64,000 nt of DNA from contig CM059443.1 of assembly GCA_030390025.1 (NCBI GenBank), positions 48,732,001 through 48,796,000 of the forward strand. Direction: 5' to 3'. A model generated the notes under the pieces. The model did not search any database, was not told the DNA's origin, and worked only from the letters and a program-made list of their open reading frames with translations. The DNA is from Squalus acanthias (Eukaryota). Shown here in pieces: positions 3,314 through 57,030 of the stretch; position 1 is the first letter of the stretch, and every line of letters starts with the position of its first letter. Position numbers and translations under genes: made by a program.

Positions 3314-3827
3314 GAATGACTTTCAATCGCACAAGTTCCATTTTGTGTCTCACACACCAGCGATGTGTTGTTCTGTCTAAATAGAGTCCAAGGGGGTGAA
3401 ATTGCTCTTCACCAGTGGCGTGAAACTCAATCACGAATCGAGCGACTGTTTCATTTCATTTCCATCAAAGTCGAAACTGGCGAGGACCAATTTTGGACCC
3501 GAACGTGTAGCTGTTACATTCTTCAACTGTGGATTCCCATCGCCCACATCCCTTGTCGGTGAGAGTGGAAATCTCACGTTGAGTCTGTCTCCGTGTTTTG
3601 TGTCAGTCGTCACAAAACATCAGAACAATCTGTGAAAGCCAAGGAGCTGCCGCCAGCGGTTTAATATCATTAGCGGAACACTGGGAGAAGATTTCTCCGC
3701 ACACAATCCTGCGCTTCAAGCAGCCTCAGTGTTACAATCTGTGAAAACACACTTGCATTCAAGGGGGTTGGTTGCACACCTGCATTCTGCGTGGTTTCCC
3801 TTCCCTGAAAATTAATGAATGGATTGA

Positions 3828-4205
3828 AAGAAGAAAGCCTTGCATTTCTATAGCGCCTTTCACGGCCTCAGGACGTCCCAAAGCACTTTAAAGCAACAAA
3901 GTACTTTTTGAAGTGTAGTCACTGTTGTAATGTAGGAAAAGTGGCAGCTAATTTGCACACAGCAAGATTCCACAACAGCAATATGATAATGACCAGATAA
4001 TCTGTTCTCAGTGATGTAGGTTGATCAATAAATATTGGCCAGGACACCAGGGATAGCCCCCCTGCTCTTCTTCAAAATAGTGCCATGGGATCTTTTACGC
4101 ACACCTGAGAGAGCAGACGGGTCTCAGTTTAATGTCTATCGAAAGACGTCACCTCTGACAGTGCAGCACTCCCTCAGCACTGCACTGGAGTGTCAGCCTA
4201 GATGA
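3828..4205 (-). mobile_element. Deu-domain SINE (SacSINE1-like); duplicated at ~44290-44690
   Basis: gacagtgcagcactccctcagcactgcactggagtgtcagcctaga core plus L2-like tail. Confidence 0.75.
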
Positions 4206-5598
4206 TGTGCCATTCAAATTTCTGGATACGCATTCTGAGCTTGTCTGAGATTTCACAGCGCAAGCGTGAATCCGTAACATCATCTCTACATGGTCCCACG
4301 TTTAGCATGGCTCCCTGTATTCTACTCCAACAACGCACCTTGATCCCAGCTTCTGAAGAGCTGCCCCAACGACACCAGTGTGATTTTCTGTTTCCCATAC
4401 CAGCCATCGCTATAGCTTCCCCATCCACCCCACCCTCGCCCGACTCACACTGGGAATTGAGTGCTGTGCTGTGAGACCATGTGTGAGAACTGGGCTGGGC
4501 TGGACTGGGCCAAACACATTTCGCGTCGCTATGCTGCAAGCAGTGGAGAGAGGAGACTGTCATCCAGGCATTCTGGACTGCATTCAAAGCCAGATGCCAG
4601 AGAGAAAAAGTGAAAGGGTATCGTGCTAAAACTGGCGCCAGCTTAGCACGGACTGGCACTCTGACCCAGAGAGGTCACGAGGTCAGGTGGTGTGGGAAAA
4701 GTTGGCTCTGCACCAAACCCGTGCTGTACCAGACCTGGGCCTGCTCGACACTGACACTGGGGCCTAGAAATTGGCTCCGGGTGCAGCATACACTGCACAC
4801 ACCCAATGGGGCCAGCGGCAGGAACACAGCACATTGGACCCCCGGCCTCATTAGTTTATCAGTAGCGAGCTGCAGGCTCCAGTCACGGCCCCAGAGGCAG
4901 CTCACAGGAGGAGGGAGCAAGATTGGCCGACTGGGACCTGAGCTGATTCCGGGATGGGGGGGGGGGACAGAGGGATGAGGCAAATGGGAGGGGGGCACGC
5001 GAGCGGTGTCTGGTAGTGGCTGACGGTTTTAATGTGGGGCCGGGAGGAGAACGCCTGCTTCCTCCTGATTCACATTCAGGTCAGGATTTGTTTTAAAACT
5101 TACTCTTTTGGTGGCGGCCTCCAGCGGTCTCTTTAAGGACCCCTGGTTAGGCCTGGTGAGGCCGCGTGGAGACCTGGTCACCCTGAATTCAGCAGGCCCA
5201 AGGCCGGCAGCGTTCAGGAAAAGTCAGTCTCCGGCTTGGGTCCTAGAACAAGCAGTAGGCCCCTCATTAGCATACTCAAGGTGCCTAACGCCTGTTTCAG
5301 GCGATCGCCAGGGACGCCTCTACAGTGCCCGAACCAATAAGGCATCAGACGTGTTTCCGATGCTATTCGTGCATGGAGGGTTGGCCCCCTAAATTGGACC
5401 TCTTTTGCACCCATTATCCACCCAGAAAAACGGTGCAACGATGTCCAATTAACCCCCACCCCGGGTGTCTGCAGTGGGAAAGTGTTCAATACCCAGTGCT
5501 GACCATGATGAGTGTAAAATATATGTATTTTTTAAATCTTGTACCACTATGGGTTTAAACAAGTCATCCGTTGCCTTTCTCCTGTTACTCGATTATGC

Positions 5599-5849
5599 TC
5601 AGGTTTCCTCCATTTTAGCATAAATAGGATTTTCTTCCATTTTTAACGGGCCAGGTCGTGGATCATCTTCCTCCAGCTGGGACTGTGTCACCGCGTCTAC
5701 CGGGCAGCCTATCAAAGAATAAATCTGCTCATTGGACAAAGCAATGGGATCCTCCTTACTGTCCTCTTTGGGCTGTGATTGGCCGCCTGGTTTGAGTTCA
5801 GTAGCTGAAGAGGTTTCAACCTGCCGTCCATGGTCCGTGTGGTCTCTGC
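5599..5849 (-). CDS. Receptor A last coding exon (cytoplasmic; QIYSLI and NPIYAKM motifs)
   Basis: Acceptor aatatctag, phase 1; reads RDHTDHGRQVETSS...NEQIYSLIGCPV...MEENPIYAKMEET*. Confidence 0.75.
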
Positions 5850-6009: not shown

Positions 6010-6044
6010 ATTTTACTCCCTGGTTCTCAGTTTTGCCTCCATCA
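6010..6044 (-). CDS. Receptor A 35-nt cytoplasmic exon
   Basis: ttttcctag / GTAAGT, phase 2 to 1, DGGKTENQGVK; exactly bridges the phases of its neighbouring exons. Confidence 0.75.
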
Positions 6045-9780: not shown

Positions 9781-9967
9781 CCTTTGACCATTGACTCTTC
9801 GATCAAACAGTACACATGCTCTGTAGAGTCAGACTTTGGGCCAGTGCTCTCCATTCCTTCACCAGGCCTTGGCTGGCTCGATGGCGTTGGAACTCTCGTC
9901 ACCGAGTACGCAACATGGTCGTTGTCATCGCTCTGATCCCTTCTGGGAACCACAGAGTACGGGAAAC
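9781..9967 (-). CDS. Receptor A cytoplasmic exon with three Tyr motifs
   Basis: tctgtctag / GTAAGC, 187 nt, phase 1 to 2; FPYSVV...VAYSVT...HVYCLI. Confidence 0.8.
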
Positions 9968-10061: not shown

Positions 10062-10096
10062 ATTCAGCCACCTGTGTCAGCTGCACATCACCAGCC
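10062..10096 (-). CDS. Receptor A 35-nt cytoplasmic exon
   Basis: actgtag / GTAAGT, phase 2 to 1, AGDVQLTQVAE. Confidence 0.7.
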
Positions 10097-10193
10097 CTAC
10101 AGTTAGTAAAGAAAAGCAACCTGTAAATGTTCCATTAAATGTGGAAAGCTATACAGAAAGTCTGCCCGAAAACTGAACGAATCCCATCCCTAC

Positions 10194-10215
10194 CTGGGTC
10201 CTGGTGCTGAGGATC
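10194..10215 (-). CDS. Receptor A 22-nt cytoplasmic microexon
   Basis: gtgaag / GTAGGG, phase 1 to 2, GSSAPGPR; needed to keep frame and conserved in copies B and C. Confidence 0.6.
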
Positions 10216-10325: not shown

Positions 10326-10433
10326 CTTTGGCAGCTTGTCGTTTCCTTCGGATTATGCAAAGTACCCCAACAATGCAAATGATCACAACCGCACACGCTA
10401 TGGTTACTTTCACAGATGTGGCAGTGTCTGGAC
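10326..10433 (-). CDS. Receptor A transmembrane exon (uncharged core)
   Basis: ctctgcag / GTAAGC, 108 nt, phase 1-1; GPDTATSVK-VTIACAVVIICIVGVLCII-RRKRQAAK (hydrophobic run plus basic stop-transfer). Confidence 0.85.
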
Positions 10434-13434: not shown

Positions 13435-13625
13435 TTTGAGTATTTGTACGAGTTAAGTTGCTGGTCACTGAGGAGATTCCAGATGTTGAGGTGGGGGTGT
13501 CTGAAGTCTCTGCACTCGCCTCTGTCACAGTAAGGGAGATGTTTGCTGCAATCTTCCAGACAGGTTTCCCTGAATCCTGACTGTGGACAGCACAGAGATA
13601 CCTCCCAGTGTCCACCACATCCGCT
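13435..13625 (-). pseudogene. 3' remnant of receptor A V-set (D2) exon; leader, D1 and the 5' part of D2 are missing
   Basis: ADVVDTGRYLCAVHSQDSGKPVWKIAANISLTVTEASAETSD...TQ with intact donor, fused to LINE sequence at ~13625. Confidence 0.85.
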
Positions 13626-15201
13626 AATGAATCAGTACTTTGCCTTGTTGAACACCACTTGGAAGAAGCACTGAGAGTAGCAAGGGCACAGAATGTACTC
13701 TCGGTGGGGGACTTCAATGTCCATCACCAAGAGTGACTCGGTAGCACCACTACTGACCGAGCTGGTCGAGTCCTGAAGGACATAACTGCCAGTCTGGGCC
13801 TGCAACAGGTGGTGAGAGAACCAACACGAGGGAAAAACTTACTTGACCTCGTCCTCACCAATCTACCTGTCGCAGATGCATCTGTCCATGACAGTATTGG
13901 TAGCAGTGACCACCACACAGTCATTGTGGAGATAAAGTCCCATCTTCACACTGAGGACACCCTCCATCGTGTTGCGTGGTACTACCACCGTGCTAAATGG
14001 GATAGATTCAGAACAGATCTAGCAGCTCAAAACTGGGCATCCATGAGGCGCTGTGGGGCAGCAGCAGAATTGTATTCGACCACAATCTGTAACCTCATGG
14101 CCCGGCATATCCCTCACTGTACCATTACCACCAAGCCAGGGGACCAACCCTGGTTCAAAAAGGAATGTAGAAGAGCATGCCAGGAGCAGCATCAGGCATA
14201 CCTAAAAATGAGGTGCCAACCTGGGGAAGCAGCAACACAGGACTACATACATGTTAAAAAACGGAAGCAGCATGTTATACACAGGGCTAAGCGATCCCAC
14301 AATCAACGGATCAGATCAAAGCTCTGCAGTCCTGCCACATCCAGTCGTGAATGGTGGTGGACAATTAAACTACTAACTGGAGGAGGAGGCTCCATGAATA
14401 TCCCCATCCTCAATGATGGTGGAGCCCAGCACGTGAGTGCAAAAGACAAGGCTGAAACATTTGCAGCCATCGTCAGCCAGAAGTGCCGAGTGGATGATCC
14501 ACATCGGCCTCCTGCTGAGGTCCCCACCATCACAGAAGCCAGTCTTCAGCCAATTCGATTCACTCCACGTGATATCAAGAAATGGCTGAGCGCAGTGGAT
14601 TCAGCAAAGGCTATGGGTCCTGAGAACATCCCGGCTATCGTGCTGAAGACTTGTCTTCCAGAACTAGCCACGCCTCTAGCCAAGCTGGTCCAGTACAGGT
14701 ACAACACTGGCATCTATCCGACAATGTGGTAAACTGCCCAGGTATGTCCTGTCCACAAAAAGCAGGAGAAATCCAATCTGGCCAATTACCGCCCCATCAG
14801 TCTACTCTCAATCATCAGCAAAGTGATGGAAGATGTCATCGACAGTGCTATCAAGCGGCACTTACTCACCTATAACCTGCTCACTGATGCCCAGTTTGGG
14901 TTCCGCCAAGACCACTCTGCTCCCGACCTCATTACAGCCTTGGTCCAAACATGAACAAAAGAGCTGAATTCCAGAGGTGAGGTGAGAGTGACTGCCCTTG
15001 ACATCAAGGCAGCATTTGACCGAGTGTGGCATGAAGGAGCCCTAGTAAAACTGAAGTCAATGGGAATCAGGGTGAAAACTCTCCACTGGCTGGAGTCATA
15101 CCTAGCACAAATGAAGATGGTTGTGGTGATTGAGGGTCAATCATCACAGTCCCAGGACATCGCTGCAGGAGTTCCTCAGGGCAGTGTCCTAGGCCCAACC
15201 A
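13626..15201 (+). mobile_element. Second-family LINE, 5' part (continues at 18011-18969)
   Basis: ORF ends ...[10 protein letters not shown] and resumes FSCFINDL at ~18012. Confidence 0.9.
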
Positions 15202-22245: not shown

Positions 22246-22837
22246 GTCCTTGGGCACCAATCAGTGTTGGGAGCCCTGCTGATCTTTCTCCTCTCTAACC
22301 CAGGGGCACTGAGTCTGATTGTAGTGTCCTCACTGAGATCAGTTCATTCATTCAATTAATTTTGCAAAAAAAATCCTGCTGGACAGATGCCACAGTTTAG
22401 TTATAGTTTTTAAACAGTGTTTATTGAATGACTTTCAATCACACAAGTTCCATTTTGTGTCTCACACAGCAGCGATGCGTTGTTCTATCTAAACAGAGTC
22501 CAAGGGGGTGAAATTCATTTCCATCAAAGTCGAAACTGGCGAGGACCAATTTCGGCCCCGAGCATGTAGCCGTTACATTCTTCAACTGTGGGTTCCCATC
22601 GCCCACATCCCGTGTCGGTGAGAGTGGAAATCTCACGTTGAATCTGTCTCCGTGTTTTGTGTCGGTCGTCACAAAACTTCAGAACAATCTGTGAAAGCCA
22701 AGGAGCTGCCGCCAGCGGTTTAATATCATTAGCGGAACATTGGGAGAAGATTTCTCCGCACACAATCCTGCGCTTCAAGCAGCCTCAGTGTTACAATCTG
22801 TGAAAACACACTTGCATTCGAGGGGGGCCGGTTGCGC

Positions 22838-23502
22838 ACCTGCCGTCCATGGTCCGTGCGGTCTCTGCCTAGATATCAAGAGAGGAGATCACGTTTGATG
22901 GGTTCACTTCCAGTGGGGGACAGATAATGAAAGCGGACTGTCTCGTTACATCAGATAAAGCTCCAGGAGCTTTAGAACAGACACAGTGTTGGCTGAGAGG
23001 ATTGTACTGAAAGATTGCAATTACTTACATTTTACTCACTGAATTTCACTTTTGCCTCCATCACTAAGAATACAGAAAATTAAACATGTGAAGCATCAGT
23101 AACATAAGATTCAAACAATAATAAACATCTGTAAATGGATTTGCTATTTTTAACCCCTGGATTTGAATCCGTCTCTCTACTCTTCAATTTTCGCTCTCAC
23201 CATCTCCCATCACTCTCCCTTTCCCTCACTCGCCCTCTATCTTTCCCTCCCTCCTTTCTCTCTCTCTATATGTCTGTCTCTCTCACTCTACCCCTCTCTC
23301 TATCCCTCCTCCTCTCTCTGGACTGTAAGGGTCATTTAAGAAATGATTTACATTCAACTTCCTGTGTCAGCCACACATTAGCCCCCTGCAGTTATTAAAG
23401 AAATGCAACTGGTAAATGTTTCATTGAATGAGAAAAACTAAACAGAAAGTCTGAATGAAAACTGAGTGAATCACATCCCTGCCACTACCGATGCTGAGGA
23501 TC
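22838..23502 (-). CDS. Receptor B cytoplasmic exons, tyrosine-free (microexon from 23502; 23352-23385; 23029-23063; remnant from 22868)
   Basis: Homologous to the A exons. Read-through gives GSSASVVAGM* (stop 23471-23473); spliced gives GSSAS(VV)-GANVWLTQEVE-LMEAKVKFSE*. The splice path actually used is uncertain. Confidence 0.5.
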
Positions 23503-24538: not shown

Positions 24539-24943
24539 CGGGGCTTCTTTTAAACTGAGCCGGTTCCCGCTATTTTACTCTGCGGGGCTCCTTTTAAACT
24601 GAGCCGGTTCCCACTCTTTTACTCTGCGGGGCTTTTTTTTTAAACTGAGCCGGTTCCCGCTCTTTTACTCTGCGGGGCTTTTTTTTTAAACTGAGCCGGT
24701 TCCCGCTCTTTTACTCTGCGGGGCTTTTTTTTTAAACTGAGCCGGTTCCCGCTCTTTTACTCTGCGGGGCTTTTTTTTTAAACTGAGCCGGTTCCCGCTC
24801 TTTTACTCTGCGGGGCTTTTTTTTTAAACTGAGCCAGTTCCCGCTATTTTACTCTGCGGGGCTCCTTTTAAACTGAGCCGGTTCCCGCTCTTTTACTCTG
24901 CGGGGCTCCTTTTAAACTGCGCCGGTTCCCGCTCTTTTACTCT
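24539..24943. repeat. Tandem repeat, ~9 copies of ~45 bp (gcggggct(t)naaactgagccggttcccgctcttttactct)
   Basis: Direct reading; lies just upstream of CR1 ORF1. Confidence 0.95.
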
Positions 24944-25106
24944 GATAAATCTTATTTGTCCCACTCACAGACATAGTGCCTGTCACACCCACTGTACCAG
25001 ACACACCCACACACTTCGGTGACAACAACTGATCCGCCCCGGAATAGACAAAACAGTGGATTGGTTTAAATCTGTTCTAGTTTAATCCGCAAGTTAGCTA
25101 GAGGGG

Positions 25107-30579: not shown

Positions 30580-30696
30580 CCTTGGCAGCTTGCCGTTTCC
30601 TTCGGATTATGCAAAGTGCCCCATCAATGCAAACTAGCACAACCAAGTACAGAACCAAAACACACATACGTATGTCACTGCAGCTGGTGTAAGGAC
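30580..30696 (-). CDS. Receptor B transmembrane exon (charged: Arg and Asp)
   Basis: ctctgcag / GTAAGC, 117 nt, phase 1-1; GPYTSCSDI-R-MCVLVLYLVVLVCI-D-GALCII-RRKRQAAK. Confidence 0.85.
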
Positions 30697-30940: not shown

Positions 30941-31402
30941 TTTGAGTATTTGTACAAGTTATGCTGCTGGTCACTGAGGAGATTCCAGATGTTGAGGTGG
31001 GGGTGTCTGAAGTCTCTGCACTCGCCTCTGTCACAGTAAGGGAGATGTTTGCTGCAATCTTCCAGACAGGTTTCCCTGAATCCTGACCGTGGACAGCACA
31101 GAGATACCTCCCAGTGTCCACCACATCCGCTGAGTGAATAGTAAGGTTGTGAGACTGGGGTCTAGCAGTAGGATTGTCTGAGCTTTGGGCAGAGATTCTT
31201 TGTGACGACCTTCTATCCACACAGCAGCGTGTGTTAATTTTTGCCTCCTTTTCCTCAATGTGAACAGAGTGCAGACACTTGGAAACGTTTCCAGATCTGA
31301 TCCAAAACAGAGTGAAGGGGAGCTTTTTTGTATTCTCAAACTGGCAGGGTAAAGTCACATTCACTCCCTCTGAGGAGATTTCTTCAGTAGAAAATATTTC
31401 AT
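30941..31402 (-). CDS. Receptor B D2 exon: V-set Ig domain plus Ser/Thr stalk
   Basis: 462 nt, phase 1-1; VTLPC, LFWIR, LTIHS, DTGRYLC V-frame motifs; extra cysteines KC and RCC. Confidence 0.92.
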
Positions 31403-31869: not shown

Positions 31870-32268
31870 CACTCTGGATTATCACAAAGAACAAGTCGTG
31901 GTTTTCACATCCCTCTCCTGACAGTGTGAGCCAGGACGGACACTTCGATGATCCTCCGTCTGTGGAATCCTGAGCCGAGCAGGTAAATACCATCGAGTTA
32001 AACGTCTCCACATCGAATGTCAGAGACTGAGACTCCATTTGTTCTTCGTTTAATTTGCATTTACTAGACTTTAGTTTGCTGGGCCTTTTTCTCAACTTAG
32101 GACTGATGTTTTCACCAAATTTCCTTTCCTTCTTACATTTTATTTTGTCCATTTCTGCTCCGAGATCAGTGGAGCTGCACAAGGTTACTTCATCCCCAGC
32201 ACCAGTGGGCATGTTGCACTGCAGAGTGGTGACATCTCCTGGTCCTCGGGAGAAGAGATAAGTGGATC
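31870..32268 (-). CDS. Receptor B D1 exon: divergent Cys-rich Ig-like domain
   Basis: ttccctgcag / GTACGT, 399 nt, phase 1-1, open; PGDVTTLQC...SLTFDV...VFTCSA...LFFVII. Lacks the canonical C-strand Trp. Confidence 0.85.
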
Positions 32269-37845: not shown

Positions 37846-38169
37846 AAGTCTGTTCATTATCAATTATTATTGGGCAACTTGAGCATCTGACCGGCACAAT
37901 TCCCCCTGTAATGGCCCTGACAGACTTCACCCAGAAACTCTCCACTCACTGACACAGATGTGTCAGTACTGCAGATCACTATTCCACTAGAGCTCGAATA
38001 AACACAGAACCACATCTCCCAGTCAGACTCGATTGTAACTCAGACATCAGCCGTGTTGGACTGAGGATAGGAGCAGACGTCACTTATCATTTCAGGAACT
38101 CAGTCTGCAGACAGCACCCACCACACACAGTCTGTTTAGAATTACCAGCAGCCAAATTACACAGAGACT

Positions 38170-39602
38170 GGTTACAAACCCCCCATTACAGTCTGGATAG
38201 AGACCCCCCCATTACAGTCTGGATAGAGACCCCCCCCCATCACAGTCTGGATAGAGACCCCCCCCATTACAGTCTGGATAGAGACCCCCCCATTACAGAC
38301 TGGATAGAGACCCCCCCCCATTACAGACTGGATAGAGACCCCCCCCATTACAGTCTGGATAGAGACCCCCCCCATTACAGACTGGATAGAGACCCCCCCA
38401 TTACACAGTCTGGATAGAGACCCCCCCCCCCCATTACACAGTCTGGATAGAGACCCCCCCCATTACAGACTGGATAGAGACCCCCCCATTACAGTCTGGA
38501 TAGAGACCCCCCCCATTACAGACTGGATAGAGACCCCCCCATTACAGTCTGGATAGAGACCCCCCCATTACACAGTCTGGATAGAGACCCCCCATTACAG
38601 TCTGGATAGAGACCCCCCCCCATTACACAGTCTGGATAGAGACCCCCCCCCATTACAAACTGGATAGAGACCCCCCCCCATTACACAGTCTGGATAGAGA
38701 CCCCCCCATTACAGTCTGGATAGAGACCCCCCCCCATTACACAGTCTGGATAGAGACCCCCCCCATTACAGTCTGGATAGAGACCCCCCCCATTACAGTC
38801 TGGATGGAGACCCCCCCCCATTACAGACTGGATAGAGACCCCCCCCATTACAGACTGGATAGAGACCCCCCCCCATTACACAGTCTGGATGGAGAACCCC
38901 CCCATTACAGTCTGGATAGAGACCCCCCCATTACACAGTCTGGATAGAGACCCCCCCCATTACAGACTGGATAGAGACCCCCCCCCCATTACACAGTCTG
39001 GATGGAGACCCCCCCATTACAGTCTGGATAGAGACCCCCCATTACAGTCTGGATAGAGACCCCCCCCCCCCATTACAGTCTGGATAGAGACCCCCCATTA
39101 CACAGTCTGGATAGAGACCCCCCCATTACAGTCTGGATAGAGACCCCCCCCATTACAGTCTGGATAGAGACCCCCCCCATTACACAGTCTGGATGGAGAC
39201 CCCCCCCATTACAGTCTGGATAGAGACCCCCCCCCCATTACACAGTCTGGATAGAGACCCCCCCCCCCCCATTACACAGTCTGGATAGAGACCCCCCCCC
39301 ATTACAGACTGGATAGAGACCCCCCCCATTACACAGTCTGGATAGAGACCCCCCCCATTACACAGTCTGGATGGAGACCCCCCCCATTACACAGTCTGGA
39401 TAGAGACCCCCCCCATTACAGTCTGGATAGAGACCCCCCCCATTACAGACTGGATAGAGACCCCCCCCATTACACAGTCTGGATGGAGACCCCCCCCATT
39501 ACAGTCTGGATAGAGACCCCCCCCCCATTACACAGTCTGGATAGAGACCCCCCCCCATTACAGTCTGGATAGAGACCCCCCATTACACAGTCTGGATGGA
39601 GA
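38170..39602. repeat. Minisatellite, roughly 45-50 copies of ~28-34 bp (C)nATTACA(CA)G(T/A)CTGGATAGAGA
   Basis: Direct reading; variable C-run length; lies in the leader-D1 intron of receptor B. Confidence 0.97.
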
Positions 39603-40714: not shown

Positions 40715-40769
40715 CTGTAGCATGTTGGAACAGAAGGAAAAGACCCACAAACAAAGCACCGAGCGCCAT
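40715..40769 (-). CDS. Receptor B signal-peptide exon
   Basis: MALGALFVGLFLLFQHAT-G with a phase-1 GTAAGG donor compatible with D1 at 32268. Confidence 0.85.
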
Positions 40770-46021: not shown

Positions 46022-46323
46022 CTATGGGTTTAAACAAGTTATCCGTTGCCTTTCTCCTGTTACTCGATTATGCTCAGGTTCTTCCATTTTAGCATAAATA
46101 GGATTTTCTTCCATTTTTAACGGGCCAGGTCGTGGATCATCTTCCTCCAGCTGGGACTGTGTCACCGCGTCTACCGGGCAGCCTATCAAAGAATAAATCT
46201 GCTCATTGGACAAAGCAACGGGATCCTCCTTACTGTCCTCTTTGGGCTGTGATTGGCCGTCTGGTTTGAGTTCAGTAGCTGAAGAGGTTTCAACCTGCCG
46301 TCCATGGTCCGTGTGGTCTCTGC
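46022..46323 (-). CDS. Receptor C last coding exon (QIYSLI, NPIYAKM; C-terminus extended relative to A)
   Basis: Homolog of 5599-5849; a 1-nt indel gives ...MEEPEHNRVTGERQRITCLNP*. Confidence 0.75.
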
Positions 46324-46483
46324 CTAGATATTAAGAGAGGAGATCACGTTTGATGGGTTCACTTCCAGTGGGGGACAGATATTGAAAGTGGACTGTCTCG
46401 TTACTTGAGATAAAGGTCCAGGAGCTTTAGAACAGACACAGTGTTGACTGGGAGGATTATACTGAAAGATTGCAACGACTTAC

Positions 46484-46518
46484 ATTTTACTCCCTGGATT
46501 TCAGTTTTGCCTCCATCA
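46484..46518 (-). CDS. Receptor C 35-nt cytoplasmic exon
   Basis: Homolog of 6010-6044, splice sites intact. Confidence 0.75.
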
Positions 46519-49500
46519 CTAGGAAAACAGAAATTAAAACATGTGAATAATGAGTAACATAAGATTCAAACAATATTAAATCGTTGTAAGTGGAGACTAG
46601 GTGAGGTCATTTTCTCCCCAGAGCCTGGATTTGAGTCCAGCCCAGACTGAAATTCTCTCATTCATTTTCTCTCTCTCTGTCTATCTCCCTCTGACTCTCT
46701 GATTGTCTCTCCGACTCTCTTTCTCTCTGTCTCTCTCTCTCGCTGTCTCTCTCTGCCTGTCTCCCTGTCTCTCTGTCTGTCTATCTTGCTGTCTCTCTCC
46801 ATTCTCTCTGTCTCTATGTCTGCCTCTCTCCNNNNNNNNNNNNNNNNNNNNNNNNNNNNNNNNNNNNNNNNNNNNNNNNNNNNNNNNNNNNNNNNNNNNN
46901 NNNNNNNNNNNNNNNNNNNNNNNNNNNNNNNNNNNNNNNNNNNNNNNNNNNNNNNNNNNNNNNNNNNNNNNNNNTGTCTGTCTCTCACTGTCTCCCTCGC
47001 TGTCTCTCTCCATTCACTCTGTCTCAGTCTCTTTGTGTCTGTCATTCCCTCCCTGTCTCTATGTCTGTCTCACTATGTCNNNNNNNNNNNNNNNNNNNNN
47101 NNNNNNNNNNNNNNNNNNNNNNNNNNNNNNNNNNNNNNNNNNNNNNNNNNNNNNNNNNNNNNNNNNNNNNNNNNNNNNNNNNNNNNNNNNNNNNNNNNNN
47201 NNNNNNNNNNNNNNNNNNNNCTCTCTTTCTCTGTGTTGCTCTGTCTCTCTCTCTGTCTCTCTCTCCCTATCTCTATCGCTCTTTGTCTCTCTCTCTCTCT
47301 CACTTTGTCTCTCTCACTGTCTTTGCTGTGTGAGCAGTCCTCTCTGCAATGAGTTTTCACAGTCCCAATCCAGTTCCTTGCCTAAAACTGCGCATCATTC
47401 AGTAAAATATTTGGACTAAATTGATCATTATGGTCAGATAAGCCAAAATATTTTCCTGAGAAATTTATAAAAAAACTTCACACGGGCACAGTGAAAGGAG
47501 CTATTCTGATGTTGGGATAAAGGAGCACTAGCAGGTCAGAGGGCAGAGTGATTTACACGGCCTCCAGCCATTCTATACCTGACTTCGAACTGTTCGGTTG
47601 TGAGATTGGCTGCAAAACCTGGAAATGTTTTATGCTGGGTGGTGGAATAGATTAGTACGGCCCTTTAATATTTTAGGATCTGCCAAGTCCAAATTACTAG
47701 GAATAAAAGTCCTCTTTCTATATCTCTCTGGTCTCTATCTCTGTCTGTCTCTGTCGCACTCTCTGTCTGTCTCTGTCTCTTTCTCTCTAAGGGTCCTTGA
47801 TGAAATGAGGATTGAGAGCAGTTTAGGATTCAGCAAAGGAGGACAAAGGGATTAATTAAGAGGGGGGAAATAGAGTATGAGAGTAAGCTTGCAGGGAACA
47901 TAAAAACTGACTGTAAAAGCTTCTATAGATATGTGAAGAGAAAAAGATTGGTGAAGTCAAGTGTAGGTCCCTTGCAGTCAGAATCAGGGGAATTTATAAT
48001 GGGGAACAAAGAAATGGCAGACCAATTAAATACATACTTTGGTTCTGTCTTCACAAAGGAGGACACAAATAACCTCCCAGAGATGTCAGGGAACATAGGG
48101 TCTAATGAGAGGGAGGAACTGAAAGAAATCAGTATTTGTACGGAACTGGTGTTAGGGAAATTGATGGGATTGAAGGCCGATAAATCCCCAGGGCCTGATA
48201 ATCTACATCCTAGGGTACTTAAGGAAGTGGTCCTAGAAATAGTAGATGAATTACTGGTCATCTTCCAAAATTCTATAGACTCTGGAACAGTTCCCATGGA
48301 TTGAAGGGTAGCTAACGTTACCCCACTATTCAAAAAAGGTGGTAGAGAGAAAACGGGGAATTATAGACCGGTAAGCCTGACATCGGTAGTGGGGAAAATG
48401 CTAGAGTCCATTATAAAAGATGTAATAGCAGAGCACTTGGAAAACAGTGACAGGATCGGTCAAAGTCAACATGGATTTACAAAAGGTAAATCATGCTTGA
48501 CTAATCTACTGGAATTTTTTGAGGATGTAACTGGTAAAATAGATAAGGGAGAACCAGTGGATGTGGTGTATTTGGACTTTCAGAAGGCTTTCAATAAGGT
48601 CCCGCATAAGAGATTAGCGTGTAAAGTTAAGGCACATGGGATTGGGGGCAGGGTACTGACTTGGATAGAGAACTGGTTGGCAGACAGGAAGCAAAGAGTT
48701 GGAATGAACGGGTCTTTTTCCGAGTGGCAGGCAGTGACTAGTGGGGTACCACAGGGATCGGTCCTAGGACCCCAGCTATTCACAATATATATATTAATGA
48801 TCTAGACGAGGGAACTAGATGTAATATCTCCAAGTTTGCAGACGACACAAAGCTGGGTGGGCGTGTGTGCTGTGAGGAGGATGCCGAGAAACTCCAGTAT
48901 GATTTGGATAGGTTGGGTGATTTGGCAGATGCATGGCAAATGCAGTACAATGTGGATAAATGCGAGGTTATCCACTTTGGTGGCAAAAACAGGAAGGCAG
49001 ATTATTATCTGAACGGCAATAGATTGGGAGAAGGGGAAGTGCAACGAGACCTGGGTGTCCTTGTGCACCAGTCGCTGAAGGTAAGCATGCAGGTGCAGCA
49101 GGCGATTAAGAAGGTAAATGGTATGTTGTCCTTCGCAGCGAGAGGGTTCGAGTACAGGAACAAGGATGTCTTGCTGCAGTTGTACAGAGCCTTGGTGAGA
49201 CCACATCTTGAGTATTGTGTGCAGTTTTGATCGTCTTATCTGAGGAAGGATGTTCTTGCCATGGAGGGAGTGCAGCGAAGATTCACCAGACTGATACCTG
49301 GGATGGCAGGAATGACGTATGAGGAGAGATTGGGTCGATTGGGCTTGTACTCGCTGGAGTTTAGAAGAATGAGAGGGGATCTCATTGAAACTTATTAAAT
49401 TCTAACAGGACTAGACAGACTAGGTGCAGGAAGGATGTTCCCGATGGCCGGGGAGTCCAGAACCAGGGGTCATAGTCTAAGGATAAGGGGTAAGCCATTT

Positions 49501-50127
49501 AGGACAGAGATGAGGAGGAATTTCTTCATGCAGAGAGTGGTGAACCTGTGGAATTCTCTACCACAGAAGGCAGTTGAGGCCAACTCATTAAATATATTCA
49601 CGAAGGAGTTAGATATATTTCTTAAGGCTAAAGGGATTAAGGGATATGGGGAGAAGGCAGGGACAGGGTACTGAATTTGGATGATCAGCCATGATCTCAA
49701 TGAATGGCGGAGCAGGCTCGAGGGGCCGAATGGCCTACTCCTGCTCCTATCTTCTATGATTCTATGATTCTATGAATTTGGTCATCTCGTTCCAGTTTGT
49801 AGCTCGTGTGAGCCACAGTACAAAACTACCCCTAAATTGTCACTTTCACTCAAACAGGCCATGAGGTGTGAGAAGTGAAATGTCCGAGCTCCCTCCTGAG
49901 TTTGGAGTTGAGGAGCATTGTTGGGACAGTCCAGAGGGAGCTTTATGCTGCACCTAATCTGGAGTGCTCCAAATGATACTGTGTGGCCACAGTGGAAAAG
50001 TAACCCACTTGCAGAGTGGGCTCCCCTCACCTTCATTACATTAACAATCTCCGAACCCTCCATCCCAAAACAAACCCATGGCCAGTGTTGAACGTTGCCA
50101 GGGGCCGACAGCTGTCACTCTGCTTAC

Positions 50128-50562
50128 CCTTTGACCATTGACTCTTCGATCAAACAGTACACATGCTCTGTAGAGTCAGACTTTGGGCCAGTGCTCTCCA
50201 TTCCTTCACCAGGCCTTGGCTGGCTCGATGGCGTTGGAACTCTCGTCACCGAGTACGCAACATGCTCGTTGTCATCACTCTGATCCCTTCTGGGAACCAC
50301 AGAGTACGGGAAACCTAGACAGAAGGACGGGTAGACGAGGTGTGCTTTTAGTTTCAACTCTCAAAGGGACAGGCTCGGAAGAGCTGGGCAGTAATTCTAG
50401 TCACTTACATTCAGCCACCTGTGTCAGCTGCACATCACCAGCCCTACAGTTAGTAAAGAAAAGCAACCTGTAAATGTTCCATTAAATGAGGAAAACTATA
50501 CAGAAAGTCTGCCCGAAAACTGAACGAATCCCATCCCTACCTGGATCCTGGTGCTGAGGATC
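50128..50562 (-). CDS. Receptor C cytoplasmic exons (50541-50562, 50409-50443, 50128-50314)
   Basis: Same lengths (22, 35, 187 nt), phases and splice sites as in A; FPYSVV, VAYSVT and HVYCLI retained. Confidence 0.78.
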
Positions 50563-50672
50563 CTTCACAACACATGCCATAAGATTGGAAAGATAAATTT
50601 AAAAGTCTTTGTAAGGAGTCTGCACTTACAATTTTCTAGATTTAGATCAAACATTTTAAAGCTCTTGCTTAC

Positions 50673-50798
50673 CTTTGGCAGATAGTCGTTTCCTTCGGAT
50701 TATGCAAAGTGCCCCAACAATGCAAAGTGCCCCAACAATGCAAATGATCACAACCGCACACGCTATGGATACTTTCACAGGTGTGGCAGTGTAAGGAC
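50673..50798 (-). CDS. Receptor C transmembrane exon (uncharged core, 18-nt internal duplication)
   Basis: GPYTATPVK-VSIACAVVIICIVGALCIVGALCII-RRKRLSAK, 126 nt, phase 1-1. Confidence 0.85.
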
Positions 50799-50872
50799 CT
50801 GCAGAGGAGAAGCAACATTAAGTTCAGTCTGTGCAATCCCGTGTTATATGTACAGCTGATCACACTGGTTAC

Positions 50873-50904
50873 CTGGCTGAGGAACAGACATTTCCGAGTA
50901 GAAT
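50873..50904 (-). pseudogene. Frameshifted (32-nt) copy of the linker exon
   Basis: CTCAGCCAG versus CTCAGCCCAG in the three 33-nt copies. Confidence 0.7.
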
Positions 50905-53114
50905 CTGGAAAAGTGCAATGGCGAAGAAAGGAAATCGAACCAACTTTTAATGGGTACAAACTGGACAACTGATCTGGAATCTATCAACTTTAATTTTTTT
51001 TATTCATTCATGGGATGTGGGCGTCATTGACAAGGCCAACATTTATTGCCCATGCCTAATTGCCATTGAGAAGGTGGTGGTGAGCCGCCTTCTTGAACCG
51101 CTGCAGTACGTGTGGTGAAGGTACACCCACAGTGCTGTTCGGGAAGGAGTCCCAGGATTTTGATCCAGCGACGATGAAGGTTCGGCGATGTATTTCCAAG
51201 CCAGGATGGTGTGTGACTTGGAGGGTAACTTGGAGATGATGGTGTTCCCATGCGCCTAATGCGCTGTCCTTCTAGGTGGTAGAGGTCGCGGGTTTGGGAG
51301 GTGCTGCCGAAGAAGCCTTGGCGAGTTGCTGCAGTGCATCTTGTAGCTGGTACACACTGCAGCCACGGTACGCCAGTGGTGGTAGGAGTGAATGTTTAAG
51401 ATGTGGATGGGGTGCCAATCAAGCGGGCTGCTTTGTCCTGGATGGTGTCGAGCGTCTTCAGTGTTGTTGGAGCTGCACTCATCGAGGCAAGTGGAGAGTA
51501 TTCCATCACACTCCTTACTTGTGCCTTGTAGATGGTGGAAAGGCTTTGGTGAGTAAGGAGGTGAGACACTCGCTGCAGAATACCCAGCCTCTGACCTACT
51601 CTTGTTGCCACAGTATTTATATGGCTGTTCCAGTTACGTTTCTGGTCAATAGTGACCCCCAGGATGTTGATGGTGGGGGATTCGGCAATGGTAATGCCGT
51701 TTATTGTTAAGGGAAGGTGGTTAGATTCTTTCTTGTTGGAGATGGTCATTGCCTGGCACTTATGTGGCGCGAATGTTTCCTGCCACTTATCAGCCCAAGC
51801 CTGAATGTTGTCCAGGTCTTGCTGCATGCGGGCACGGACTGCTTCATTATCTGAGGGGTTGCGAATGGAACTGACCACTGTGCAGTCATCAGCAAACATC
51901 CCCACTTCTGACCTTATGTTGGAGGGAAGGTCATTGATGAAGCAGCTGAAGATGTTTGGGCCTAGGACACTGCCCTGTGGAACTCCTGCAGTGATGTCCT
52001 GGGGCTGAGATGATTGGCCTCCAACAACCAGAACCACCTTCCTTTCTGATAGGTATGACTCCAACCAGTGGAGAGTTTACCCCCTGATTCCATTGACTTC
52101 AATTTTACTCAGGTTCCTTGATGCCACACTCGGTCAAATGCTGCCTTAATGTCAAGGGCAGTCACTCTCACCTCCCCTCTGGAATTCAGCTTTTGTCCAT
52201 GTTTGGACCAAGGTTGTAATGAGGTCTGGAGCCGAGTGGTCCTTGCGGAACCCAAACTGGGCATCAGTGAGCAGTGCTGCTTAATAGTACTATCGACAAC
52301 ACATTCCATCATTTTGCTGATGATTGAGAGTAGACTGATGGGGCAGGAATTGACCGTTTTGGATTTGTACTGCTTTTTGAAGACAGGACATACCTGGGCA
52401 ATTTTCCACTTTGTCGGGTAGATGCCAGTGTTGTAGCTGTACTGGAACAGCTTGGCTAGAGGTGCGGCTAGTTCTGGAGGACAAGTCTTTAACACGACAG
52501 CCGGGATGTTGTCGGGGCCCATAGCCTTTGCTGTATCCAGTGCGCTCAGACATTTCTTGATATCACATGGAGTGAATCAAATTGGCTGAAGACTGGCTTC
52601 TGTGATGATGGGGACTGCAGGAGGAGGCCGAGATGAATCATCCACTCACCACTTCTGGCTGAAGATGGTTGCAAACACTTCAGCCTTGTCTTTTGCACTC
52701 ACGTGCTGGGCTCTGACATCATTGAGGATGGGGATGTGCATGGAGTCTCCTCCCGTTAGTTGTTTAATGGTCCACCACCATTCACGATGTGGCAGGACTG
52801 CAGAGCTTTGATCTGATCCATTGGTTGTGGGATCACTTTACTCTGTCTATAGCATGCTGCTTCTGCTGTTTAGCATGCATGTATTGTAGCTTCACCAGGT
52901 TGGCACCTCATTTTTTGGTACGTCTGGTGCTGTTCCTGGCATGCTCTTCTACACTGCTCATTGAACCAGGGTTGGTCCCCTGGCTTGATGTTATTGGTAG
53001 GGTGAGGGATATGTCGGCCCATGAAGTTACAGATTGTGGTGGAGTACAATTCTGCTGCTGCTGATGGTCCACAGTACCTCATGGATGTCCAGTTTTGAGC
53101 TGCTAGATCTGTTC

Positions 53115-53432
53115 ACAGAATCACAGAATCACAGAATCCCCACAGTGCAGATAGAGGCCATTTCGGCCCATCGAGCCTGCACCGACACATATCCCACCCT
53201 ATCCCCGTAACCCCACGTATTTAATCCCCCTAACACTAAGGGTCAATTTTTATCATAGCCAAATCAACCTAACCCGCACATCTTTGGACTGTGGGAGGAA
53301 ACCGGAGCACCCGGAGGAAACCCACGCAGACACGGGGAGAATGTGCAAACTCCACACAGACAGTCACCCGTGGCCGGATTCGAACCCGGGTCCCTGGCCC
53401 TGTGAGGCAACAGTGCTAACCACTATGCCACC
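53115..53432 (-). mobile_element. HE1-like V-SINE, absent from the paralogous site at ~12765
   Basis: tRNA head tggcatagtggttagc...gggttcgaatcc, V-domain gtctgcgtgggtttcctccggg, (ttctgtga)n tail. Confidence 0.85.
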
Positions 53433-54091
53433 ATTTAGCACGGTGGTAGTGCCACACAACACGATGGAGGGTGTCCTCAGGATGAAGACGGGTCCTTGTC
53501 TCCACAAGGACTGTGCGGTGGTCACTCTTACCAATACTGTCATGGAGAGATGCATCTGCGACAGGTAGATTGGTGAGGACGAGGTCAAGTATGTTTCTCC
53601 CTCGTGTTGGTTCTTTCACCACCCGCCGCTGGCAGCTATGTCCTTCAGGACTCGACCAGCTCGGTCAGTAGCGGTGCTACCGAGCCACTCGGTGATGGAT
53701 ATTGAAGTCGCCCACCCAGAGTACATTCTGTGCCCTTGCTACCCTCAGTGCTTCTTCCAAGTGGTGTTCAACGTGGAGGAGTACTGATTCATCAGCTGAG
53801 GGAGGGTGGAAGGTGGTAATCAGCAGGAGGTTTCCTTGCCCATGTTTGGTCTGATGCCATGAGACCTCTTGGGGTCAGGGAGTCAATGTTGAGGACTCCA
53901 AGGGCCACTCCCTTCCGAATGTATACCACTGTGCTGCCACCTCTGGTGGGTCTGTCTTGCCTGAGGGACAGGACATACTTAGGGATGGTGATGGAGGAGC
54001 CTGGGACATTTCGTGAAAGAATTATTTATATTATTTATATTGAATTATTTATATTAAATGAGTTGCATTGTTTCTAGATTGTATCACTTAC

Positions 54092-54163
54092 TTTGAGTAT
54101 TTGTACGAGTTAAGCTGCTGGTCACTGAGGAGATTCCAGATGTTGAAGTGGGGGTGTCTGAAG
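54092..54163 (-). pseudogene. Short 3' remnant of the C-copy D2/stalk exon
   Basis: SDTPTSTSGISSVTSSLTRTNTQ plus donor; truncated next to the LTR. Confidence 0.8.
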
Positions 54164-54184
54164 ATTTACCACTGCTCATTACAG

Positions 54185-55510
54185 TGTAGGCTTCGCAAAA
54201 TCCCCCAGAAACTCGAACAGAAACCTAAAAGGAGTGATTTTTGGATCTTTCATATAAACTTGGGATGATGGGACCCAAGTGAAGTGATTTGAGGTAAAAA
54301 CCTCAGTTTTGGACATTTTAAAGATCAGGGAAGAAAAGCCCTGAGGAAAATGACTTTTGAATCTTACTGTTGGGAAAGACACCTTTCACAGACACAAGAC
54401 AGGCTGCGGAGGGGCGTGGCCAGGCAGTGGAAAGCTTTGGGTATTGGGGCCTAATCAAGCTGTCTGGGAATTGTTTACACTGCAATCCTACCAAGGAGGA
54501 AGAGACAAACCCAAAGCCTCACAGACACATCGAAATATGAATAATCCAAGACCTCCCTTTGAAATTCCCAGGCCCAAACAGGATAGCAGAAGCCTGAAAT
54601 CAATAAAACATTTAGTACCCCGATTACTTCATCAAAAACCAATCAACCAGGTATCCACAGGGACAGATTTACAAGCCCGCCAAAAACCTAGGACAATAGG
54701 GACAAGATTTGGCGCGCAGATAAAGGCCCCGCCTAAATGGGAAATATCGGAAGCCATCCGGACATGTTGAACACCAAGTTAAAGCCATCGAAACTGACAA
54801 GCCCGCCAAAACTAAGACAATGGAATAAACAGGGCTCAATTGAAATCTAAAGGAAACCGATTTAGTAAGGAGTTTTGGGCGCGAAAAGGACAAAGGGCCT
54901 GAACAGTATAATTGGGGGCCTAATCACCCAAGACTGGCTCTCTGAACTCTCTGACAACGCTCTCAACGCTCGCACAGCTCTCTCTCAGCTCTGTTCCAGC
55001 AAGACACCACAAGCCACGAGCAGGAGGAGGAAAGAAGGCCAACAACTTCACAAGCAGACCAACATGTAATAAGAAACCAGAGCGACTGCCTCAGTGACCA
55101 TCGGACACCTCGCAGCAACTAGGGCCTTATGAAACCTTTTACTCAAAAGACTCTAAACCCTAACTCTCAACTGTCAAGGATTCGTTTGGTGAACATTATC
55201 CCTGATCTCCTGAAACCAAAACCTAGCTAGATAGTGGGATTTTTGGGAGGGATAAGGTTTTTTTGTATATTGTCCTTCTCCCTCGCCTGTACCGTGTGTT
55301 CCCCAACCTGTGTTTAAGTGTTAAGTGTGTTTTAAGTTTGTTACCTTTTCTTTTAATAAAGTCAAAATTCTTTCATCAGAACCTGTTGTCTACTGCATCT
55401 TTGTTCACAACCCCTAAATAAGTCCAAAGTCTAGAACCAGGGGCGTGGGAGCGATTCGAACCGCTCACTGAGTCAGAGGTGAAGGCTGACCCCACACACC
55501 ACCCCCTACA
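54185..55510 (+). mobile_element. Solo LTR (~1.33 kb)
   Basis: TGTAGG...CCTACA inverted termini, AATAAA at 55355-55360, no recognisable coding domain; flanks acag/acac are not a clean TSD. Confidence 0.75.
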
Positions 55511-55521
55511 ACACTGGTTAC

Positions 55522-55554
55522 CTGGGCTGAGGAACATACTTTTCTGGTTAGAAT
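55522..55554 (-). CDS. Receptor D 33-nt linker exon
   Basis: NSNQKSMFLSP, splice sites intact. Confidence 0.7.
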
Positions 55555-55691
55555 CTGGAATAGTGCAATGGCGAAGGAAGTAAATCAAAGCAACTTATAA
55601 TGGCTACAAACTGTACAACTGATCTGGAATCTCTCAGTTTGAATTATTGATATTAAAAGATTCACATCATATTCTAGATTGTATCACTTAC

Positions 55692-56174
55692 TTTGAGTAT
55701 TTGTACGAGTTAAGCTGCTGGTCACTGAGGAGATTCCAGATGTTGAGGTGGGGGTGTCTGAAATCTCTGCACTCGCCTCTGTCACAGTAAGGGAGATGTT
55801 TGCTGCAATCTTCCAGGCAGGTTTCCCTGAATCCTGACCGTGGACAGCACAGAGATACCTCCCAGTGTCCACCACATCTGCTGAGTGAATAGTAAGGTTG
55901 TGAGACTGGCGTCTAGCAGTAGGATTGTCTGAGCTTTGGGCAGAGATTCTTTGTGACGACTTTCTGTCCACACAGCAGCGTGTGTTAGAATGTGCCTTAT
56001 AATCCTCAATGTGAACAGAGTGCAGACACTTGTTGACGTTTCCAGATCTGATCCAAAACAGAGTGAAGACGAGGTTTTTTGTATTCTCAAACTGGCAGGG
56101 TAAAGTCACATTTTCTCCCTTTGACACTGTCAGCGACCAGGAGTTTTCTTCAGTAGAAAATATTTCATCCGAAT
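55692..56174 (-). CDS. Receptor D D2 exon: V-set Ig domain plus stalk
   Basis: 483 nt, open, phase 1-1; GENVTLPC, LFWIR, DTGRYLC. Confidence 0.9.
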
Positions 56175-56625
56175 CTATAAACAACATTAAAAAGAACATT
56201 TGTTACTAATTATTTAGAAGTGCCGTTCCCACATGTTATCCAGCTGTTTGATGTAAGTGTGAGTCTGTCTGTAACTAGCTGTATTATCAGCAGTGGAGAC
56301 AGCAGGCGTGGGCCAGGGCCAAATCCTTGTTTGGAATATTTGTCTGATTTTCCCACCGTTAGATTAAACATTCCCCAGCTAGAGGCAGATTGTGTAAGAT
56401 CAGGAAACACTCAGGGACTGAGAGCAAGGAGCGAGAAGACAGGACAAATAATGAAAGATCGAACACACAAAGGCAAAAGACAGGGGCAGACACTAAAGGA
56501 CAGAGACAAGGGGGGTAGACTTCAAACTCGCTTCTCTGTATCTCGATACCTGGGAATTTTATCCCGCCCCCCCGCCCCCAGATACTTCCCCGATCCCTCC
56601 CCCGATATTGCCCCAGTACACGTAC

Positions 56626-57030
56626 CACTCTGGATTATCACAAAGAACAAGTCGTGGTTTTCACATCCCTCTCCTGACAATGTGAGCCAGGACGGACACT
56701 TCGATGATCCTCTTTCTGTGGAATCCTGAGCCGAGCAGGTAAATACCGTCAAGTTAATCGTCTTCACATCGAATGTCAGAGACTGAGACTCCGTTTGTTC
56801 TTCATTTAATTTGCATTTTCTACACTCTGGCTTACTCTGCCTGTTTGTCCAATTAGGACTGATATTTTCACAAAATTGCATTTCCTTCTCTTTATTCTCA
56901 CATGTATTGTCAATTTCTGCTCCGAGATCAGTGAAGCTGCACAAGGTGACTTCATCCCCAGCACCAGTGGTCACGTTGCACTGCAGAGTGGTGACATCTC
57001 CTGGTCCTCGGGAGAAGAGATAAGTGGATC
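56626..57030 (-). CDS. Receptor D D1 exon: Cys-rich Ig-like domain (leader expected right of the window)
   Basis: 405 nt, open, phase 1-1, same splice sites as 31870-32268. Confidence 0.85.

Follow-up and report, generated by a model that had tools for sequence, protein, structure and literature searches.

Several families of paired immune receptors are known in which the exons encoding the ligand-binding part are homogenised within each species while the signalling exons stay distinct. Such merohomogenization has been described for NKG2/KLRC, KLRB, Ly49 and PIR (Fossum et al. 2011, PMC3210942), and the shark receptor family reported here shows the same arrangement. The cases treated there are mammalian, extend over tens of millions of years and have members shown to signal in opposite directions, whereas the shark case spans both shark superorders and its opposite signalling is predicted. 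A second parallel is offered by the activating KIR and Ly49 described by Abi-Rached and Parham (2005, PMC2213150), in which a short tail derives from a long one and the membrane segment carries a basic residue, as appears to hold for the short-tailed shark gene, copy B. In the same account rhesus KIR3DH lost its ITIMs through exon omission and a frame shift, much as B seems to have lost its tyrosines, and activating KIR and Ly49 are called short-lived, their ages being put at about 18 and 31 million years at most. KIR use a Lys with DAP12; the shark family differs in having an Arg in B, and an ectodomain composed of a divergent Cys-rich domain and a V domain.

An Arg at the outer end of the membrane segment, combined with a short tail, is found in LILRA2, PIR-A, NKp46, GPVI, OSCAR, FcalphaR and Xenopus XFL TM1 as it is in B, and is presented as the pattern of FcR-gamma-binding receptors (PMC2413239). 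These NxxR receptors differ from the shark proteins, whose motif lacks the Asn at -3: that position is Ser or Thr, while a Cys stands at -4 and a Tyr at +7, and an inner Asp is frequent. The classical FcR motif (M/L)Fxx(D/N)TxL, as given in the same source, bears a loose resemblance to the shark motif, but the short membrane segment does not match it. Among fishes, skate MDIR and teleost NITR and SITR are, like the present family, multigene Ig receptors with activating and inhibitory forms (PMC3031540, PMC6795676). As described there, SITR also place an atypical N-terminal Ig domain before the V domain, SITR being soluble; in NITR the V domain comes first and an I/C2-type domain follows, whereas in the shark family the V-set domain is second and domain 1 is not V-set by Pfam. 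For MDIR the comparison is one of published description and match names only: none of the names MDIR, NITR or SITR occurred among our protein search matches, which included no ray or bony-fish protein. Finally, the shark CD28/PD-1 family (PMC11599192, PMC12151841) shares with ours a weak V match (PD-1), a Ser/Thr stalk and a tyrosine-bearing tail, but its members have a single V domain, whereas members of the present family have two extracellular domains; the family also differs in being clustered in tandem, in having a short partner and in the absence of an ITSM. Judged by sequence, the shark family is without the defining features of NxxR receptors, classical FcRs, the CD28/PD-1 family and NITRs. 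It did not turn up in the literature searched, which lay mostly outside subscription journals. What we describe is a real, old and transcribed short-tailed partner in an undescribed shark family.

The window analysed here is a stretch of 64,000 nucleotides from Squalus acanthias, and it contains three related units on the minus strand, in the transcription order C, B, A. They form part of a cluster on contig C19 of this genome (G000), and a second cluster lies 1.6 Mb away. By mapping exons over 40 stretches around both clusters, we found 12 units that carry a leader, a domain 1 and a V exon, of which 8 are long-tailed and 4 are of the B type. Four further units are orphan long tails, and one is a fragment at an edge. 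When the genome was searched with the membrane exon, 16 matches came up, and 4 of these are identical to B. Damage affects 4 of the 8 complete long genes and one of the 4 B copies, the other three B copies having open frames. The clusters (48.64-48.83 Mb and 50.37-50.53 Mb) contain units that are 96-100% identical, in differing order: either a segment was duplicated recently or two haplotypes were both assembled, and the copy counts hinge on which. Flanking genes, sought through open frames, yielded nothing usable for synteny. On the whole of the evidence we consider it fairly likely that B is the short-tailed member of a receptor pair predating the split of the shark superorders, and that it activates through an ITAM adaptor of the FcR-gamma/CD3-zeta type.

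In a preliminary description of the window, copy A served as the intact long-tailed reference. A proves to be an orphan tail without leader or domain 1, and the complete long form in the window is copy C (46022..57030, minus strand), whose leader lies just outside. Copy C has a second Ser/Thr stalk exon at 54050-55510, broken up by a 1.3-kb LTR-like element; models from Pristiophorus, Mustelus and Heterodontus have a second stalk exon too, but B does not. We considered whether the complete long genes arose by deletion of a B cassette from a unit of B plus orphan tail, and rejected the idea: the extra V-like piece is this second stalk exon, which other sharks also have. The membrane exon of C (50673-50798) carries an in-frame 18-nt duplication, of which another copy has two, and a 1-nt deletion past the last tyrosine (46022-46080) lengthens the C-terminus.

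Copy B, on the same strand, opens with a 55-nt leader exon for the signal peptide (40715..40769), a match to the N-termini of other shark proteins; once it had been located, the leader candidate at 38000-38180 was discarded. The Cys-rich domain 1 exon (31870..32268) is spliced to the V exon in one RNA contig (X4 record 29) and probably encodes a divergent Ig domain, Pfam giving Ig_2 at only E=0.19 and the Atlas leads being Ig-like. The following exon (30941..31402) encodes the V-set domain and Ser/Thr stalk, with an acceptor moved by 6 nt in frame; the V-set call comes from the exon of copy C (E=2.6e-9, Pfam). In a structure model with a mean pLDDT of 47, domain 1 stayed unfolded. The matches from the fold search were all of the generic V-set kind and headed by PD-1, and the Atlas searches gave generic Ig clusters, while at the sequence level the V domain matches PD-1 weakly (E about 2e-3) and TCR alpha chains equally well. 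The likeness to PD-1, as far as such comparisons go, is at the generic V-set level, and the named relatives in protein searches are all uncharacterised shark proteins. Tandem repeats with units of about 28 and 46 nt occupy B introns at 38180-39600 and 24539-24944.

The long tail is best followed in copy A, where exon tracing on the minus strand gives the 3' part of a V exon cut by a LINE (13436..13637), with neither leader nor domain 1 upstream of it; a membrane exon of the long-form type (10326..10433); two microexons spanning 10062..10215, m1 (10194-10215) and m2 (10062-10096); a 187-nt exon with three tyrosines (9781..9967); a third microexon, m3 (6010..6044); and the coding part of the last exon, with two further tyrosines (5599..5849). 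Four of these tyrosines are present in all 12 long tails and the first in 11 of 12, and the long-tailed partner is predicted to signal through the five conserved tyrosines. None of the five motifs in A is a canonical ITIM; one ITIM occurs in 5 of the 12 long tails, and an ITSM in none. With so few canonical motifs, the long form is at most a putative inhibitory receptor. Other long copies have suffered tail-tyrosine losses that are independent of B: four (C19:48701534, 48645597, 50499153 and 50526811) bear the same retroelement-like insertion in the three-Tyr exon, and in two (C19:48806371 and 50456588) the last exon is cut. In one of these copies, skipping the broken exon together with m3 keeps a two-Tyr tail in frame.

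The three-Tyr exon of A has no counterpart in B, and alignment confirms this observation of the preliminary description. The junction of the deletion responsible (deletion 1) lies approximately at 23335..23348 on the minus strand and appears to start a few bases into the m2 donor; its far side is matched only weakly (E 0.078), at a point some 630 nt downstream within a long copy. A second deletion (deletion 2) had been placed at an exact 6-bp microhomology, 22838..22843, and this too is correct: A 3778 is joined to A 5824 in B, with the loss of 2041 nt and both last-exon tyrosines. The missing segment (A 3778..5824) has the 6-mer at both ends and comprises 220 nt of coding sequence and about 1.8 kb of 3' UTR. 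Microhomology of at least 6 bp arose in 0.14% of 200,000 trials in which deletions of 1.5-2 kb were placed at random in A, and the junction is common to all four B copies.

The loss of all five tyrosines was originally attributed to the two deletions jointly. That reading omitted m3, a 35-nt exon in A and in B (23029..23063, minus strand), which the long frame requires and within which the B stop lies (23032-23034, 3 nt before the last exon junction). Since the three-Tyr exon is 187 nt long, its omission shifts the frame, and m3 of A read in that shifted frame meets the same stop as m3 of B. Thus, deletion 1 alone strips all five tyrosines from the protein, and deletion 2 sits in the 3' UTR of B, within a last exon (22420..22868, minus strand, AATAAA at 22420-22425) that is non-coding in the observed mRNA. 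The tail is free of tyrosine on every B splice path that had been traced (12 of 12). For the proximal microexons the quoted lengths (22 to 14 or 20 nt for m1, 35 to 34 nt for m2) and peptides are arithmetically right, but the use of these exons is not borne out: the remnants (m1, 23483..23502; m2, 23352..23385; both minus strand) are skipped in RNA, and their in-frame reading as a preserved tail is therefore irrelevant. Both donors are degraded, that of m1 by a change from GT to GC at the homologous site, or with a weak new GT, and that of m2 by loss of the G at +5. The apparent start of deletion 1 within the m2 donor would account for the skipping of m2. Skipping of m1 and m2 together, 57 nt and in frame, is also seen in long-form models from other sharks (P0008, P0014, P0018), and the cassette appears to be alternatively spliced in the long form too.

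For RNA evidence we used assembled contigs from 4 of 10 listed runs (X1-X4); none is recorded as RNA, so that RNA status is presumed, and the joins are spliced. Such contigs drop rare isoforms, and the join counts cover only the loose ends listed. A first mapping of reads (15.8 kb) was swamped by LINEs, and the joins of the membrane exon were therefore taken from contig loose ends. Spliced contigs in X1, X2 and X4 cross the junction of deletion 2 with the last exon joined to m3, and a direct join from membrane exon to m3 is supported in all four runs. In X3 the loose end upstream of m3 is window 30581-30610, the end of the B membrane exon; in X2 the V exon occupies 340-824 of a 1053-nt contig in which the last exon starts at 975, leaving a gap of exactly 117 + 35 nt; and in X1 and X4 a two-contig consensus equals, letter for letter, the tie consensus of the B membrane exon and the three-Tyr exon. 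No contig among those listed in the four runs joins m2 to m3, the next exon, and m2 is covered by one unspliced contig, at depth 2, and nothing else. The B mRNA hence runs from V exon to membrane exon to m3 to last exon, with m1 and m2 skipped, and its tail in the shifted m3 frame reads MEAKVKFSE before the stop. Under the usual 50-nt rule, a stop this near the last junction escapes nonsense-mediated decay (NMD), and the B mRNA, whose stop falls 3 nt before that junction, should do so. As to the concern that B might be untranscribed or degraded by NMD, a B-type mRNA exists and should escape decay. Long-type contigs, for their part, read through the far end of the deletion 2 segment in all four runs.

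The RNA contigs show gaps against window B in domain 1 and the V exon, and they bear variants of other B copies or alleles, including a last-exon change seen in the copy at C19:50394694. These variants point to other copies, so that expression is not pinned on the window's own B; B-type mRNA is transcribed in the family, from one or more of four copies that the contigs do not single out.

All four B copies are followed by an orphan long tail without leader or domain 1, cut at the same point. One could suppose from this layout that B and A are a single gene, in which the B ectodomain is spliced either to its own membrane exon or, some 20 kb further on, to the A membrane exon and long tail. Three of the four orphans are open and their phases fit the B V exon, and such a gene would be compatible with B acting as an old activating partner. 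We nevertheless regard the proposal as doubtful. The orphans are 96-100% identical to other long tails, so their open frames say little; a polyadenylation signal of B's own precedes A; no RNA join from B to an orphan was seen, though the read mapping could hardly have shown one; and a single LINE-broken gene carried along in block duplication accounts for the arrangement. The simple reading is that the orphan tail is a LINE-broken neighbour duplicated together with B. Long-tail models in other sharks (P0018, P0052 and P0054 in Heterodontus, P0019 and P0020 in Scyliorhinus canicula) also start in the V exon near the start of orphan A; they may be similar orphans, or merely begin at the first Met of an incomplete model.

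Short forms occur in seven other sharks (Pristiophorus, Heptranchias, Heterodontus, Mustelus, Scyliorhinus torazame, Hemiscyllium and Stegostoma), making eight species with Squalus, and the proteins of these other sharks are automatic gene models. Neither m1 nor m2 is included in any of the 14 short-form models; 6 of them terminate within m3 read in the shifted frame, and 13 are free of tyrosine beyond the membrane segment. Deletion 2 is shared as well: past the shared start of the last exon, the Heptranchias peptide falls on the junction itself, at A 3782, a fit that 0 of 500 shuffles equalled, and a Heterodontus peptide matches the 96 nt that follow the junction in B, which 0 of 2000 shuffles did as well. 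When the latter peptide was run blind against 3.3 kb of A, the match was not significant (128 of 500 shuffles). The frame past the junction varies among species, as expected of non-coding sequence. Since these species come from both shark superorders, the two forms and deletion 2 are older than the superorder split, which occurred roughly 250-300 million years ago.

These data bear on the age and direction of the change. The window had been read as the record of a signalling receptor being converted into a short-tailed partner; the idea of a partner and its probable derivation from a signalling form hold, but the proposed mechanism and timing fail, an ongoing conversion in this genome being contradicted by a short form and junction common to both superorders. 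One might also take B for a pseudogene, or for a copy that decayed recently in this lineage, given the fast turnover of the cluster and the damage among its members (4 of the 8 complete long genes and one of the 4 B copies). This view can scarcely be credited, and is largely refuted by the trans-species data: the tail frame, membrane signature and junction are the same in other shark orders, the mRNA is spliced, and the membrane exon is identical in all four B copies.

As for direction, the comparison with outgroup sharks suggested by the preliminary description shows that other sharks share the short form, and none lacking one of the two forms was found. Protein searches returned sharks only (20, 26 and 28 matches), and since they are word-limited, absence from rays or chimaeras is not implied. 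With no ray or chimaera relative found, polarity rests on the decayed m1, m2 and start of the last exon kept in B. Were the short form ancestral, the long tail would have been gained by insertion, leaving the 6-mer as a target-site duplication. Both histories are consistent with a direct 6-bp repeat, and no outgroup outside the sharks was found that might speak for one of them. Yet decayed forms of m1 and m2 persist in B, as do the opening 31 nt of the last coding exon, and outside the long frame none of these has a use; at its start the A segment continues that open frame; and two separate gains would be required. We therefore hold an ancestral short form to be very unlikely. B is probably derived from the long form, a direction that rests on the remnants inside it.

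We compared the history of the ectodomain with that of the membrane segment in 25 sequences. The trees omit 6 of the 12 Squalus ectodomains (three with the V exon uncut, two frameshifted, one with the membrane exon uncut). In the ectodomain tree short and long forms pair by species, with 8 label changes, and a short-form clade is rejected (p-AU 2.7e-35); the Squalus ectodomains group with Pristiophorus, as expected if the source is a squalomorph shark. The membrane segments of the same 25 sequences form one short-form clade (support 100/99). The labels were assigned by eye from tail and membrane segment, which makes the membrane tree partly circular but not the ectodomain tree. A DNA tree of all 12 Squalus ectodomains mixes short and long forms likewise (p-AU 1.9e-6). 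Within the cluster, domain 1 of B is 97.7-99.0% identical to three long genes, its membrane exon only about 80%; against A, the 5' part of the membrane exon is 54% identical and the 3' part 88%. We conclude that homogenisation within species has affected the ectodomains, and that the membrane segments have retained their tail type. Near-identical ectodomains joined to differing membrane and tail regions in one cluster are a feature of paired receptors.

Another such feature is a short-tailed member with a charged residue at or in the membrane segment, and the short forms have an Arg there in all eight species. The B membrane exon (30580..30696, minus strand) encodes a Cys, an Arg four residues later, a Tyr seven residues after the Arg, and an inner Asp, and is identical in all four B copies. 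Across species the Cys, Arg and Tyr are invariant (8 of 8) and the inner Asp is present in 5 of 8; none of 24 long rows has Arg and Tyr at the signature columns, and many long forms have a Lys near the outer membrane border. The NxxR motif is absent, Asn at -3 being found in 0 of 8 species and Ser or Thr in all 8, with Asn or Asp at -2 in 6 of 8.

As for possible adaptors, an FcR-gamma-like membrane exon lies on a 39-kb contig of the same genome (L042:1504-1596, minus strand; best PDB match FcR-gamma, E 1e-11), and a CD3-zeta-like membrane exon at L041:1450-1653 (plus strand). Only the membrane exon of the FcR-gamma-like gene was found, and no single-exon ITAM was detected in the 20 kb beside it; ITAMs are split over exons, so a blank search of this kind says little. 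A 2014 survey (PMC4016189) reported neither an FcR-gamma chain nor LRC-like genes in sharks.

The same conservation and homogenisation would fit an ancient, selected partner that does not signal, either a decoy or a dimerising chain that uses Cys, Arg and Tyr to pair with the long form and so tunes it. Its conserved extracellular Cys could form a disulfide, the segment departs from NxxR, and adaptor coupling in B is predicted only. Yet a pure decoy needs no invariant Arg and Tyr in or at the membrane across eight species, and a short tail with a basic membrane residue is usually the sign of adaptor coupling, as described for other receptors (PMC2213150). We see such a non-signalling role as possible, if unlikely. 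By analogy, adaptor-coupled activation by B seems reasonably probable.

An activating B could have arisen as follows. In a duplicate of the long gene, the three-Tyr exon and some of the m2 donor would have been deleted, and this loss would have fixed an exon-skipping, NMD-immune reading already possible with the long gene's own exons. The 2-kb deletion would have trimmed sequence that is now 3' UTR, and either deletion may have come first. The resulting protein would dock an ITAM adaptor through its membrane segment, in opposition to its long-tailed partner. That sharks possess an old activating module, far older than any activating KIR or Ly49, has in our judgement a slightly better than even chance of being correct. 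It is improbable that three things hold jointly, namely an old module from a fixed exon-skipping isoform, an undescribed Cys-Arg-Tyr-Asp membrane code, and an activating/inhibitory splice switch between B and the orphan tail.

Few paired innate receptors have been described in cartilaginous fish, and the present family provides a concrete shark pair. Its genome also contains an exon of a candidate adaptor, and three of the residues in the short form are invariant. If B does activate, then sharks have retained a signalling module throughout their radiation, which would be a counter-example to the idea that activating partners last only briefly, and it would extend the partial homogenisation of receptor genes far back in time.
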